Assembly: GCF_001431415.1 (NCBI RefSeq)
Contig: NZ_LDJI01000015.1
Location: 28,618-60,617, forward strand
From: Stenotrophomonas humi
Lineage (GTDB): Bacteria > Pseudomonadota > Gammaproteobacteria > Xanthomonadales > Xanthomonadaceae
Length of the DNA stretch: 32,000 nt
Direction: 5' to 3'
Under the pieces are notes generated by a model that was given only the letters and a program-made list of their open reading frames with translations, was not told the DNA's origin and made no database searches. Shown here piece after piece: positions 9,918-18,725 of the stretch (within the stretch, counting starts at the first letter, position 1; each line of letters opens with the position of its first letter). The position numbers were made by a program, and so were the translations under genes.

Positions 9918-10349
9918 ATGGAGCAGGGGATGTACAGGGGAATTTTTGGGGTTGTTTTGTTGGTTTTCGCCGGTAGCGCGTCAGCTCAGCAAATTCATAG
10001 TGCTGCTGGCCGGGGAACACCGCGCGTCACCGAGACGCCCAGAGCAGCTCACAATTCTATGGCTAAGGGTACCGAGCCAATGAACTGTGAGCAGTACAGA
10101 AATCATCCTCATCCGGCCATCCACAGCATGTGTCAAGGGATGGAGGCTCGTTTGATTCAGTCGGAGGCCGTACGTGTGGGCAGGCCGTCCGCATCAACTG
10201 AAGTTGTGACGCTTCCCGGTCTCGGTACCTCAGGCGCCAAGGCGCTGGGATTTGCTTGCGTGGGTGGTCAGGCCTTTAGGAAACTGCCTAACGGTTGGGC
10301 TCAGGTTTCTTCACCGCACGGAGGCTGGCAGCGCTGCCGCGAAGGTTGA
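9918..10349 (+). CDS. Small secreted Cys-containing hypothetical protein (prophage-remnant cargo)
   Basis: 143-aa ORF with signal peptide GIFGVVLLVFAGSASA/QQ and four Cys in the mature part. It occupies the post-zot position held by a 62-aa TM protein in prophage A. Confidence 0.4.
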   Translation: MEQGMYRGIFGVVLLVFAGSASAQQIHSAAGRGTPRVTETPRAAHNSMAKGTEPMNCEQYRNHPHPAIHSMCQGMEARLIQSEAVRVGRPSASTEVVTLPGLGTSGAKALGFACVGGQAFRKLPNGWAQVSSPHGGWQRCREG

Positions 10350-10721
10350 TTCGGGGTGCAGGGGCGTTGCCCCTGCGGTGGCGCCGAAGTGGCGTTCGCA
10401 CCATTCGCCCAGGTCTACGACGACGACTTTCACCATCGACCGCTGACCGGCTTTTCGTGCCGCATTCCTTTTTCGTGACGAGTCACGTAAATCAGCGGCA
10501 TGTGCGTGCCAGAGCAGGCCGCGCAGCCTGCGTTCTGGGATTCTTTCGCCGCTTGGGGCCACCAGATCTCGTCCTGCGAGCCGCCACCCAGCCCATGGGC
10601 CAGTCAGCACGACGTGGTTCTCGATCACACGCCGGTAGTGGTCGCTCGCACAGCTGTTCGGGCATTGCGTTCCCGGTTCCCAGCACGGTGGGCGGTTGTC
10701 CAGGTTGTAGGTATCGCTCAT
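10311..10721 (-). CDS. DUF3653-like phage protein (possible XafT-like Xer activation factor)
   Basis: Paralog of 17890..18243 (MSDTYNLDNRPPCWEPGTQCPNSCASDHYRRVI.NHV.LTGPWAGWRLAGRDLVAPSGERIPERRLRGLLWH). The TGxWAGxxxxGxxLVxPxG core also occurs in 18432..18725. The 3' end reads through a GC-rich palindrome. Confidence 0.55.
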   Translation of the reverse strand: MSDTYNLDNRPPCWEPGTQCPNSCASDHYRRVIENHVVLTGPWAGWRLAGRDLVAPSGERIPERRLRGLLWHAHAADLRDSSRKRNAARKAGQRSMVKVVVVDLGEWCERHFGATAGATPLHPESTFAAALPASVR

Positions 10722-10800
10722 GCCTCAATTTCCCCCTGATCCTTAGGAGGCCGCGATGGTAGGTGAGAGGTGATCCATAGCCAGATCCAGCTGAGCCGCG

Positions 10801-11178
10801 CTATGGCATGGGAATATGCAATTTCGCATAATGTATAAACGGTGCAGCTGAAACACCGGTTTCCGATGCCTGTACGTGCGCAGGGGAGGCGAGGCCGACT
10901 CCTATCACTAGGGCCATCGCGGTAGCGGCCAATTTGCGCCATACAGCCTTTTCTTTCTGATCCGTGGCGCGTGCTTCGCCCACGATGCCCAACACCTTTG
11001 CCAGCGGTACGCCGGTAATACCGGCAATCGTCGCGCACGTGATCGTGTCGGGGAATTTATTGCTGTTTCGCCAGTTGCTCACGGACTGTCGGGATACGCC
11101 CAGCTTGCGGGAAAGGTCGCTGTCAGACGTTGCACCGGACGCCTGCTTAGCCAGGTCAAGAAGCTCTGTGAAGTCCAT
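10801..11178 (-). CDS. Phage A HTH repressor/immunity regulator with C-terminal hydrophobic tail
   Basis: Starts MDFTELLDLAKQASGATSDSDLSRKLGVSRQSVSNWRNSNKFPD (Xre/Cro-like HTH). It has the same architecture as the prophage B protein at 26505..26801. Its last codons (..FIHYAKLHIPMP*) are encoded by the dif-like site itself. Confidence 0.65.
   Translation of the reverse strand: MDFTELLDLAKQASGATSDSDLSRKLGVSRQSVSNWRNSNKFPDTITCATIAGITGVPLAKVLGIVGEARATDQKEKAVWRKLAATAMALVIGVGLASPAHVQASETGVSAAPFIHYAKLHIPMP
10821..10848 (+). other. dif-like Xer site, phage A attP-type junction: ATTTCGCATAA-TGTATA-AACGGTGCAGC
   Basis: It has a perfect XerC-type arm plus the TGTATA central region, identical to the site at 18332. 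The XerD-side arm is degenerate. It lies inside the 3' end of the repressor gene. Confidence 0.7.
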
Positions 11179-11180
11179 CG

Positions 11181-11247
11181 TGTCCACCCTGTGTTGACTA
11201 CTGTCCACCCCCAGTGTACTTTCCGCACTGTCCACCGATAGTGGACA
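11181..11247. promoter_or_regulatory. Putative phage A operator cluster: TGTCCAC x3 plus an inverted GTGGACA
   Basis: TGTCCAC occurs at 11181, 11202 and 11229. The palindrome TGTCCACcgataGTGGACA spans 11229-11247. The cluster lies directly upstream of the repressor start (11178). Confidence 0.4.
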
Positions 11248-11261
11248 CCCGCCCCGGCCTC

Positions 11262-11289
11262 CCCTAGAGCCGGGTGCGGGCTTCTAGGG
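11262..11289 (-). terminator. Conserved hairpin CCCTAGAGCC-GGGTGCG-GGCTTCTAGGG downstream of the cargo gene
   Basis: 10-bp stem with one bulge. The same hairpin occurs in inverted orientation at 26395-26422 in prophage B, in the same relative position. There is no T-tract, so its function (terminator or other) is uncertain. Confidence 0.35.
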
Positions 11290-11383
11290 TGTAGGGGAGG
11301 GGGCAGTGGCCGTGACGGACAGAGATCGCAAGACCATCATCCATCCCGAGCTCGTTAGGCGTAGTGCCGCGGGCCGGAACGAT

Positions 11384-17523: not shown

Positions 17524-17554
17524 AGTCCGGCCTTTCTTCTAGGGGGAGAAAGGC

Positions 17555-17743
17555 ATGCAGTTTGATGTTTCAGGTGTCGTTGGCATGTTCGCCAAGGTGG
17601 CTATGGTGGTGGTTGTCGCAGGCGGTGTTGCTATCGGTGTGGGGCTCTATCTTCGGAATATGCCAAAGCCTCGCAAGATGGCCGCGATCAATTTGACCTT
17701 TGCGCTAGTCCTCATTGTTGGCGGGCTGTTTGTCTTGCGATAA
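17555..17743 (+). CDS. 62-aa two-TM phage protein
   Basis: MQFDVSGVVGMFAKVAMVVVVAGGVAIGVGLYLRNMPKPRKMAAINLTFALVLIVGGLFVLR. AGGGGGAGAAAGGC lies upstream of the ATG. Confidence 0.45.
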   Translation: MQFDVSGVVGMFAKVAMVVVVAGGVAIGVGLYLRNMPKPRKMAAINLTFALVLIVGGLFVLR

Positions 17744-17889
17744 GGGTGCAGGGGCGTTGCCCCGATCTGACGGCGCCGTGGATCCGCTCTGCAGAAAGTC
17801 GACTTTTAAAACCCTTGTGCCGCAAGGGTTTCGAGGCGTCGCGACCAGGCACTTGAGGGTGTAGGGGCATAGCCCCTACGGTGACGCTG
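17744..17889. repeat. GC-rich palindrome-bearing element (left copy of an inverted pair flanking dif)
   Basis: Termini 17744-17785 and 17858-17888 are reverse complements of 18838-18880 and 18733-18763. It contains the palindromes GGGGCgttGCCCC (17751-17763), AAACCCTTGtgccgCAAGGGTTT (17809-17831) and GTAGGGGCATAGCCCCTAC (17861-17879). The last is GTAG-type, like Stenotrophomonas SMAG/REP elements. Confidence 0.7.
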
Positions 17890-18243
17890 TTACCCGGCGC
17901 TGGTTCCGAAGTGGCGTTCGCGCCATTCGCCCAGGTCTACGACAACGACTTTCACCATCGACCGCTGACCGGCTTTACGTGCCGCATTCCTTTTTCGTGA
18001 CGTGTCACGTAAATCAGCGGCATTGGCGTGCCACAGCAGGCCACGCAGTCTGCGTTCTGGGATTCTTTCGCCACTTGGGGCCACCAGATCTCGTCCTGCC
18101 AGCCGCCATCCAGCCCATGGGCCTGTTAGCGCGACGTGGTTGTCGATCACACGCCGGTAGTGGTCGCTGGCACAGCTGTTCGGGCATTGCGTTCCCGGTT
18201 CCCAGCACGGTGGACGGTTGTCCAGGTTGTAGGTGTCGCTCAT
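17890..18243 (-). CDS. DUF3653-like phage protein (possible XafT-like Xer activation factor)
   Basis: 117 aa, near-identical to 10311..10721. It is the last gene of prophage A, 88 bp from the dif-like site. Confidence 0.55.
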   Translation of the reverse strand: MSDTYNLDNRPPCWEPGTQCPNSCASDHYRRVIDNHVALTGPWAGWRLAGRDLVAPSGERIPERRLRGLLWHANAADLRDTSRKRNAARKAGQRSMVKVVVVDLGEWRERHFGTSAG

Positions 18244-18331
18244 GCCTCAATTTCCCCCTGATCCTTAGGAGGCCGGGATGGTAGGTGAGACGTGATCCAT
18301 AGCCAGATCCAGCTCAGACGGCTGATAAGCA

Positions 18332-18359
18332 ATTTCGCATAATGTATATTATGTCAACG
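18332..18359 (+). other. dif: Complete dif-like XerC/XerD site ATTTCGCATAA-TGTATA-TTATGTCAACG
   Basis: 28-mer with both arms close to the proteobacterial dif pattern (E. coli GGTGCGCATAA-TGTATA-TTATGTTAAAT). It contains the TTCGCATAATGTATA core. It lies exactly at the prophage A / prophage B boundary. Confidence 0.8.
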
Positions 18360-18431
18360 AAGGATCGGCTTTGGCTCTGCCGATTCCAGCACGATGCCCC
18401 CTCCACGCGATCGGCGTGACCAGGGGCAATC

Positions 18432-18725
18432 ATGAAAGACAGGAAGTTGACCGGCTCTTGGGCCGGTTTCGCGTTTAAGGGAGGCCGATTGGTAACCCCT
18501 GAAGGCCGTGAACTTTTTCCGGAAGATCTGGCTTGGATCAGTCTGACTGCGCAACTTGCGCAGGAATACAGGCGACTGCTTGAAGCTGACAGGCGCGCTC
18601 GAGGCCTGATCACACCGAGCCTAAAGCCGATGAAAGGCGGCATTCGTCAGTTGCCCACGCGGCACGCGGAACCATGCCCGGTAGTCCCATTGATGCCGAC
18701 GCTGAGGCGATCCGGGCGCGGGTGA
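18432..18725 (+). CDS. DUF3653-like phage protein, divergent paralog (possible XafT-like factor)
   Basis: MKDRKLTGSWAGFAFKGGRLVTPEGRELFPEDLAWISLTAQLAQEY shares the TGxWAGxxxxGxxLVxPxG core with the two other copies. It lies 73 bp from the dif-like site, on the opposite side. Confidence 0.5.
   Translation: MKDRKLTGSWAGFAFKGGRLVTPEGRELFPEDLAWISLTAQLAQEYRRLLEADRRARGLITPSLKPMKGGIRQLPTRHAEPCPVVPLMPTLRRSGRG

Follow-up and report, generated by a model that had tools for sequence, protein, structure and literature searches.

DUF3653 genes beside dif-like sites in an array of two oppositely oriented inovirus prophages of Stenotrophomonas humi: candidate packaging proteins of the PSB15 type

The window analysed here, a stretch of 32,000 nucleotides (nt) of Stenotrophomonas humi (assembly GCF_001431415.1, contig NZ_LDJI01000015.1, positions 28,618 to 60,617 of the forward strand), contains two complete inovirus gene sets, A and B, in opposite orientation, together with three genes of the DUF3653 family, g1, g2 and g3. 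The single most likely function of g3, and by position of g1 and g2, is a packaging role of the type described for the PSB15 protein of phage phiLf-UK; this reading, made from homology and the literature, is held with moderate confidence. From the mechanics of Xer recombination we infer in addition that the junction beside the DUF3653 gene would rebuild a working dif site on integration. The genes, the dif-like sites and the elements between them are the following (coordinates in the window).

10311..10721, minus strand: g1, subfamily I DUF3653 gene in the A' remnant, 136 amino acids (aa), phrog_25084
17890..18243, minus strand: g2, 117 aa, the subfamily I DUF3653 gene belonging to prophage A; a Cys3-His extension at the N terminus precedes the WAGWRLAGRDLV core
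18432..18725, plus strand: g3, PSB15-type (subfamily II) DUF3653 gene of prophage B, 97 aa, phrog_2188
10821..10848, plus strand: S1, junction of A' and phage A, ATTTCGCATAA-TGTATA-AACGGTGCAGC, XerC arm and centre intact, XerD arm (the degenerate arm of phage A) with 8/11 mismatches
18332..18359, plus strand: S2, the sole two-armed dif-like site in the window, ATTTCGCATAA-TGTATA-TTATGTCAACG, XerC arm of phage A and XerD arm of phage B (3/11 mismatches)
26777..26804, plus strand: S3, crippled junction, GCTCGGCGTTA-TGTATA-TTATGTAAAAC, degenerate XerC arm of phage B (6/11 mismatches) and intact XerD arm TTATGTAAAAC
10849..18331, plus strand: prophage A, an inovirus bounded by S1 and S2 with its structural genes on the plus strand (PHROG matches)
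18360..26776, minus strand: prophage B, an inovirus whose structural genes read on the minus strand (PHROG and Pfam matches)
26805..26864, plus strand: B' remnant, about 60 nt matching the S2-g3 spacer at 80% identity, without the DUF3653 gene expected next to it

The g3 product is a full-length orthologue of phiLf-UK PSB15 (38% identity) and carries all the PSB15 motifs at identical residue numbers, namely L6-T7-G8, W10-A11-G12-F13-A14-F15 and T22-P23-E24. In its AlphaFold2 (AF2) model (mean predicted local distance difference test score, pLDDT, 71.5) the strands 14-16 and 19-21 form a beta-hairpin (14-21), which is followed by a helix (30-57) and a low-confidence, disordered basic tail; this layout fits the published description of PSB15 (beta-hairpin, long helix, basic tail). 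PSB15 of phiLf-UK is reported to bind the packaging signal, and assembly is reported to depend on it (Yeh et al., bioRxiv 10.1101/2024.03.19.585677). According to the same preprint the refolded protein binds packaging-signal hairpins at approx. 10 nM in electrophoretic mobility shift assays, the substitutions T7A and T22A suppress mutations in the packaging-signal loop, and a start-codon mutant gives an approx. 10^4-fold lower phage yield which is complemented in trans, while loss of PSB15 does not alter attL/attR formation, replication of the replicative form or the synthesis of coat protein. PSB15 reportedly attaches to the packaging-signal hairpin through its WAGFxF motif and brings the phage single-stranded DNA (ssDNA) to the inner membrane for assembly; by analogy, a g3-type protein would do the same.

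The g1 and g2 proteins do not show the complete PSB15 motif set. Subfamily I, to which they belong, keeps LTG and WAG, and has W46 for F13, L48 for F15 and A55-P-S57 for TPE. This subfamily holds the same slot in phage A as g3 does in phage B, and no second DUF3653 open reading frame (ORF) was found in phage A. Judged by this analogy of position, g1 and g2 most likely do the equivalent packaging job for the A-type phages.

The translations and their alignment agree with the three ORFs and the common core that an earlier reading of the letters alone (the sequence-only reading) had described: L-T-G-x-W-A-G...L-V-x-P-x-G is common to all three, with L39, W43, G45 and P56 invariant. The genes g1 and g2 share 93% nucleotide identity and differ by 16 synonymous and 7 non-synonymous codon changes, while g3 shares with them only a 47-residue core (40% identity). 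In profile-profile comparison (hhalign) subfamilies I and II matched with 95% probability over the whole length past the N-terminal extension. DUF3653 (Pfam PF12375, gathering score 22.4 bits) is the sole family matched by all three proteins. The score of g3 (34.1 bits) is above the gathering score, those of g1 (18.1 bits) and g2 (19.7 bits) are slightly under it, and relatives of g1 and g2 have precomputed PF12375 matches. The sequence-only reading had named DUF3653 as the family of XafT, which is correct according to Midonet 2019 and to the name of the NCBIfam family NF040522, 'VC1465 family Xer recombination activation factor' (XafT); its expectation that the three proteins would be recognised as such held for g3 in Pfam, narrowly failed there for g1 and g2, and failed for all of them with NF040522, where the scores are weak (g1 25.0, g2 25.0 and g3 38.7 bits) and lie under the cut-off of 70 bits. 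Pfam detected no helix-turn-helix (HTH) domain in the g1, g2 and g3 proteins; the HTH is encoded by a separate upstream ORF. At its 3' end (10311-10367, minus strand) g1 no longer has the usual stop codon, and translation would continue across the hairpin, which gives 136 instead of 117 aa. The gene is otherwise intact, with no frameshift or internal stop, though its phage is gone.

The N-terminal extension of subfamily I comprises about 35 residues, among which C13, C20, C24 and H28 are kept in 43-57 of 66 homologues. Its motif, R-P-P-C-W-x2-G-x2-C-P-N-x-C-A-x2-H...N-H (g2 residues 10-36; about 18136-18216, minus strand), does not occur in the PSB15-type proteins and is unreported for XafT; it may be a zinc knuckle. 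The AF2 model of g2 (pLDDT 80) has a hairpin at 47-54 and a helix at 63-93. A PDB sequence search and Foldseek comparison of the g2 model with PDB and BFVD returned one uncharacterised homologue and no informative structural relative, and no solved structure was significantly similar to these DUF3653 proteins. Genomes and metagenome-assembled genomes of Stenotrophomonas supplied the closest homologues of g2 and g3 (87-92% identity), which by themselves point to Stenotrophomonas or a close relative as the probable host. Subfamily I is common in prophages and absent from the phage records searched, where tblastn with g2 gave no match; the tblastn matches of the PSB15 type reach all the Xanthomonas and Stenotrophomonas inoviruses.

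The position of these genes is also conserved. In a survey of 23 genomic loci, 33 IMG/VR loci and 11 cultured phage genomes a dif-like site was found at a fixed distance upstream of almost every DUF3653 ORF, and a spacing of 70-100 bp between the gene and attP (the phage attachment site) recurs in >50 independent loci and phage genomes. In the window the distances between start codon and site are 99 nt (g1-S1), 88 nt (g2-S2) and 72 nt (S2-g3), a regularity far beyond chance. The minus-strand module of the Xanthomonadales dif-integrating inoviruses consists of an HTH repressor gene, an attP in the 3' end of the repressor, the DUF3653 gene and a GC hairpin; in the circular phage the DUF3653 gene lies 70-100 bp downstream of this attP. 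The minus strand of phiLf-UK shows the same order, namely the HTH repressor, attP in its 3' end, 84 nt, PSB15 (ORF9/ORF112) and then GTAGGGGCTATGCCCCTAC. The attP of XacF1 sits within its regulator ORF12, and in Vibrio rstR/attP/xafT forms an analogous terminal gene pair (PMC12715192; bioRxiv 10.64898/2026.06.12.731946). Phages A and B each carry a CI-like HTH/DUF3693 repressor on the strand opposite to the structural genes, with the 3' end overlapping the att site.

10801..11235, minus strand: phage A HTH repressor (CI-like HTH and DUF3693, Pfam matches), 3' end overlapping S1
26505..26801, plus strand: phage B HTH repressor, stop codon inside S3

The DUF3653 genes had also been described as those nearest to an att site. 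The short spacing of 72-99 nt was found as described; however, the repressor ORFs overlap S1 and S3 and are thus nearer. Furthermore, g2 and g3 diverge from one common site, S2, and no DUF3653 gene adjoins S3.

Just beyond the DUF3653 genes lies the last part of the module, an 8-bp GC hairpin of the form G[T/C]AGGGGC-N3-5-GCCCCT[A/G]C with the flanks CCG...CACC, which starts 12-19 nt past the last sense codon.

10358..10376, no strand assigned: GC hairpin GCAGGGGC-GTT-GCCCCTGC at g1, in the usual post-stop position (from the sequence)
17861..17879, no strand assigned: GC hairpin GTAGGGGC-ATA-GCCCCTAC just 3' of g2 (from the sequence)
18742..18760, no strand assigned: GC hairpin GTAGGGGC-TAT-GCCCCTAC just 3' of g3, the same hairpin sequence as after PSB15 in phiLf-UK

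The hairpin accompanies 67 of 111 DUF3653 ORF matches, in both subfamilies and with both attP polarities (an example is at about 4956-4974 of locus L001). Its second stem pair covaries from T:A to C:G, and the rest of the window has no copy of it. It could serve as a terminator lacking a T-run, as a minus-strand origin or as a site for protein binding.

The scan of the window for dif-like 28-mers returned S1, S2 and S3 only; no further site was found at the left end of A' or to the right of S3, even at 5 mismatches. The free attP sites can be reconstructed from these junctions. attP(A) is ATTTCGCATAA-TGTATA-AACGGTGCAGC, with 0 mismatches in the XerC arm, 0 in the centre and 8 in the XerD arm, and belongs to the TLC/phiLf type (XerC arm intact, centre as in dif, XerD arm degenerate). 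attP(B) is GCTCGGCGTTA-TGTATA-TTATGTCAACG, with 6, 0 and 3 mismatches, respectively, and belongs to the Cf2/phiSHP2 type, which has a degenerate XerC arm but an intact XerD arm and centre on the side facing the DUF3653 gene. The earlier statement that each gene stands beside a conserved arm, with a XerC-arm attP in phage A and a XerD-arm attP in phage B, was therefore upheld by the site scan. Every free attP that could be reconstructed follows the same rule, with an intact arm toward the DUF3653 gene and a degenerate one within the 3' end of the repressor. The XerC arm is proximal in phiLf-UK, Cf1c, Xf109, phiXv2, PSH1 and SMA9, and the XerD arm in Cf2, phiSHP2, SMA7, SMA6 and also phiLf2, both arms of which are fairly good. 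SMA6 was considered as a DUF3653 phage without attP and this was rejected, a weaker XerD-arm site being present. Since dif is nearly palindromic (TATACA and TGTATA are 2 positions apart, as are TTATGCGAAAT and TTATGTTAAAT), few changes convert one attP polarity to the other.

The two paralogs had been proposed to have diverged in order to serve attP sites of opposite half-site design, and this proposal was rejected, because PSB15-like proteins accompany both attP polarities. Among the non-redundant ORFs of subfamily I (n=40), 36 are proximal to the XerC arm and 4 to the XerD arm, the latter being distant members from Lysobacter, Rhodanobacter and Dyella. The non-redundant ORFs of subfamily II, counted without the extra cultured phages, are divided into 12 XerD-proximal and 16 XerC-proximal ones. 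In the neighbour-joining core tree the attP designs interleave, PSH1 grouping with SMA6, SMA7 and phiSHP2, and phiLf-UK with the loci L008, L049 and L050; this tree was built on about 53 residues and is indicative only, and the pairwise identities agree with it. Since the polarities are mixed both in the counts and in the tree, the protein lineage does not set the attP polarity.

The arrangement of the window can be understood from the one-armed design of the two attP sites. Xer exchange at the borders of the shared TGTATA core would swap arms, joining the intact phage arm to the other arm of the host. A XerC-arm attP would leave a crippled left junction (host XerC arm and degenerate phage arm) and a right junction in which the XerC arm comes from the phage and the XerD arm from the host; this right junction would be a working dif beside the DUF3653 gene. 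The outcome for a XerD-arm attP would be the mirror image, and in both cases the crippled site would lie at the repressor end. The DUF3653 gene would lie beside the conserved arm because the exchange rebuilds a working dif at the gene-side junction. New phages would insert at this working dif, next to the DUF3653 gene; XerC-arm (A-type) elements would pile up leftward and XerD-arm (B-type) elements rightward, A' and B' would be pushed outward, and A and B would be the newest of each type, flanking the live dif S2. The dif-centred order predicted in this way reproduces the window exactly: the A' remnant, the crippled S1, inovirus prophage A, the two-armed S2, the inverted inovirus prophage B, the crippled S3 and the B' remnant. 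S2 is thereby the presumed active dif at present, with the newest prophage on each side. The arrangement of an A-type and a B-type element around dif was also found in L026/L033 (perfect dif), L004/L029/L034, L008, L013, L038, L050 and L051, and a perfect ATTTCGCATAATGTATATTATGTTAAAT forms the central site in the IMG/VR contig 3300011676_000009.

The outermost elements of the array are short. Left of S1, A' consists of g1 and about 1 kb of unassignable sequence, and nothing more. Flank comparison left the origin of the 55 nt after S3 (host or phage) ambiguous; they were read as a B-type remnant because of their match to the S2-g3 spacer. By its sequence, B' seems to be what is left of an older B-type element after the loss of its DUF3653 gene.

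Several points weigh against the packaging role. The data on PSB15 come from preprints which are not peer reviewed, and its integration test was an end-point polymerase chain reaction, which is blind to a large drop in rate. A search of phages A and B with the packaging-signal consensus (stem GGX(A/-)CCG(C/T)G, loop T/C) gave motif matches, none of which folds into a convincing 7-8 bp hairpin. The replication protein of A and B is of the RstA type and is unrelated to the phiLf pII where the signal was mapped, thus the signal cannot be located by homology in these two phages. The replication module is the location of the packaging signal in several relatives. In A and B these regions form a 1400-nt inverted repeat, 86% identical, while the DUF3653 proteins are very different; such divergence sits awkwardly with the sequence-specific binding of one shared signal. 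In g1 and g2, moreover, a Leu replaces the DNA-contacting F15 and A-P-S replaces T22-P-E. No other obvious driver of FtsK-independent recombination at a one-armed attP was found in these small genomes. Finally, DUF3653 is present in the TLC-phi satellite and in Vibrio double-jelly-roll prophages, which have no filamentous virions, and this points to Xer recombination rather than packaging as the ancestral shared role.

A strong alternative, though less likely than the packaging role, is that the DUF3653 proteins are XafT/XafV-like Xer activation factors, either in place of packaging or in addition to it. Such a protein would bind XerD (or XerC), turn on its catalysis independently of FtsK and make the synapse of dif with a one-armed attP more stable. 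XafT, a DUF3653 protein, activates XerD in vitro and in vivo, an action ascribed to its DUF3653 part, and DUF3653 genes cluster at dif in 51 species, non-filamentous elements included (Midonet 2019, PMC6744903). XafT compensates an attP with 8/11 mismatches in the XerD arm, which is exactly the state of the phage A attP. XafV, a structural homologue of XafT, also adjoins its attP and acts on XerC-first reactions only; Xer activation stays viable because XafT and XafV set a precedent for Xaf proteins matched to attP types. As with XafT, the gene adjoins the attP of a Xer-exploiting element in the window (72-99 nt), and the linkage at 70-100 bp is invariant in >50 loci and persists through flips of the attP polarity. 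In XacF1 a 5' deletion of the regulator upstream of attP delays integration and makes the prophage unstable, which a polar effect on the DUF3653 gene could explain. However, the PSB15 start-codon mutant of phiLf-UK still forms attL and attR (yield drop ~10^-4-fold), the scores with the VC1465 family model are far under its cut-off, and the proteins of the window have no fused HTH or dimerisation domain, though most DUF3653 proteins do not have a fused HTH (Midonet 2019, PMC6744903). Nor does the subfamily track the attP polarity, as would be predicted for XerC- and XerD-specific activators.

A combined form of this idea, which we regard as rather unlikely and put forward tentatively, takes the DUF3653 proteins of the Xanthomonadales inoviruses as genuine Xer activation factors for which packaging is a second job in some lineages. 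The intact-arm rule would then be functional, a live dif being kept upstream of the newest Xaf gene on both sides of a bipolar array; XerCD at dif could gate the expression of Xaf, and subfamily I, which is paired with a XerC-arm attP in 36 of 40 non-redundant cases, would be a distinct class of Xaf.

The only sigma-70-like match near the genes lies at 18322-18350 (plus strand), uses TATATT in the dif core as -10 and is directed toward g3; this is no more than agreement with the consensus. It is conceivable that the AT-rich dif core also serves as a promoter element, which bound XerCD would occlude.

It is improbable that the DUF3653 proteins are regulators of the lysogeny switch, e.g. anti-repressors or co-repressors acting with the adjacent HTH repressor, in which case nearness to attP would matter only as integration separates the gene from the repressor operon. 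The repressor always has the DUF3653 gene as its direct downstream neighbour on the same strand, the interval from the att site to g2 yielded no sigma-70-like promoter, and the single consensus match of g3 overlaps dif. The SMA7 homologue is annotated as 'putative regulator protein' and a Vibrio study names XafT/P15 'transcriptional regulators'. Against this, a DNA-binding HTH is absent from the DUF3653 proteins, the PSB15 mutant was unchanged in replication and in its synthesis of coat protein, and no experiment speaks in favour of a regulatory role. That the frames beside the sites arose by chance or have decayed, and serve no function, is highly improbable and is refuted for g2 and g3: g1 does stand in a remnant without recognisable phage genes and has a displaced stop codon, but there are hundreds of homologues with invariant core residues, the synteny is kept in cultured phages, and the codon differences between g1 and g2 are 16 synonymous and 7 non-synonymous.

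The rest of the window was annotated as follows. The gene order in prophage B matches that in prophage A on the opposite strand, with a TraX/TrbP-like gene in addition.

12939..14102, plus strand: prophage A RstA-type replication protein (PHROG)
14130..14417, plus strand: prophage A ssDNA-binding protein (PHROG)
14836..16095, plus strand: prophage A pIII-like protein (PHROG)
16088..16372, plus strand: prophage A pVI-like protein (PHROG)
16369..17523, plus strand: prophage A Zot/pI (PHROG)
19402..20019, minus strand: prophage B TraX/TrbP-like protein (Pfam TraX 1e-47; phrog_5529)
20016..21257, minus strand: prophage B Zot/pI (PHROG/Pfam)
21197..21538, minus strand: prophage B pVI-like protein (PHROG/Pfam)
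22074..23042, minus strand: prophage B pIII-like protein (PHROG/Pfam)
23655..23948, minus strand: prophage B ssDNA-binding protein (PHROG/Pfam)
23952..25127, minus strand: prophage B RstA-type replication protein (PHROG/Pfam)

The TraX/TrbP-like 'transfer protein' gene of phage B also occurs in Cf1c, Xf109 and SMA6, and is not present in phage A. When the nucleotide sequences of A and B were compared with 50,697 phage records, a 33-nt identical element was the only match, thus neither has a close cultured relative. This element (13035-13067 in phage A, 24999-25032 in phage B) is 100% identical to its counterparts in phiSHP2, SMA7, phiLf2, PSH1 and fSU1, while the genes around it show no similarity detectable by megablast. 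Folded as the hairpin GACTCCCCT-CGTCTAAC-AGGGGAGTC, it stands just upstream of the likely rstA ATG at 13070 and is a candidate plus-strand origin or other cis element. A second non-coding block shared by A and B (17745-17797 and 18826-18882, 87% identical) contains GGATCCACGGCGCCGTCAGATC and a GGGGC-N3-GCCCC hairpin; it lies downstream of the DUF3653 genes, which themselves have almost no nucleotide similarity.

Outside the array, positions 1 to about 9118 hold ordinary chromosomal genes (sigma-70 factor, ChrR-like, TspO, histidine kinase, BenE and GntR-aminotransferase). To the right of it a tyrosine integrase (27697..28776, plus strand), a PDDEXK-like protein (28930..30147, minus strand) and a HerA/FtsK-like ATPase (30193..31902, minus strand) are encoded; possibly the region 27697-31902 is a further mobile or defence island that borders on the array.

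The expectation of a new twist on Xer hijacking was not sustained, the main elements having been largely published (Midonet 2019; Cf2). The presence of DUF3653 in all the dif-integrated Xanthomonadales phages, with a position and orientation that depend on the subclass, has been described (Midonet 2019, PMC6744903). The XerD-arm attP of Cf2 is annotated in GenBank. The XerD-dependent integration of this phage was reportedly the subject of a paper by Yeh (2020, Virology 548:160). An attP within the regulator ORF (XacF1), the terminal repressor/attP/xafT pair, IMEX arrays and PSB15 are likewise in the literature. Thus the window adds new members and not a new kind of system. In the literature accessible to us we did not find stated the rule of the intact proximal arm with bipolar stacking, nor the hairpin after DUF3653, and these are modest extensions of the known work.

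Two competing experimental stories exist for DUF3653, Xer activation (XafT, Barre laboratory) and the binding of the packaging signal without a role in integration (PSB15, Yeh et al.). The window is a compact natural test bed for them, with two complete inoviruses and one dif that is probably live. The replication modules are near-identical, while the DUF3653 subfamily and the attP polarity differ, and attP(A), attP(B), g2 and g3 are clean substrates for choosing between the two stories in Xanthomonadales. It also illustrates how opposite one-armed attP sites would stack prophages on both sides of dif with chromosome-dimer resolution preserved.

Among the known systems phiLf-UK is closest to phage B in its protein. 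PSB15 and g3 share the N-terminal DUF3653 beta-hairpin, the positions of LTG, WAGFxF and TPE, the long helix and the disordered basic tail, and in both phages the gene is downstream of an HTH/DUF3693 repressor, with attP approx. 70-85 nt upstream of the start and the GTAGGGGCTATGCCCCTAC hairpin past the stop. However, the XerC arm is proximal in phiLf-UK and the XerD arm in phage B, the replication protein is pII in phiLf and of the RstA type in phage B, and no consensus packaging-signal hairpin was found in phage B. The g1 and g2 proteins differ further from PSB15, having WAGW, Leu at F15, APS for TPE and the added Cys3-His extension.

XafT/VC1465 of Vibrio cholerae TLC-phi resembles the proteins of the window in its DUF3653 domain and in the position of its gene, which adjoins the attP belonging to an IMEX, an integrative mobile element that makes use of Xer (Midonet 2019, PMC6744903; Miele 2022, PMC9226527). 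The attP of TLC-phi is like that of phage A (XerC arm intact, centre identical to dif, 8/11 mismatches in the XerD arm) and unlike that of phage B, where the opposite arm is degenerate. Unlike g1-g3, XafT has a fused XRE HTH, while in the window the HTH is in a separate upstream ORF.

Cf2, with the attP TGCGTATAGTC-TGTATA-TTATGTCAAAG, phiSHP2 and SMA7 have, like phage B, the XerD arm and the core intact facing the DUF3653 gene and a degenerate XerC arm. They belong to another phage lineage, the identity of the N-terminal DUF3653 domain is 46-72%, and the integration of phage B is deduced from its sequence. The Vibrio IMEX arrays also have a terminal repressor/XafT-like pair split by a dif-like attP, with serial integration at the regenerated dif (PMC12715192; bioRxiv 10.64898/2026.06.12.731946). 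In contrast to these arrays, the window contains two mirror-image attP designs on opposite sides of one dif.

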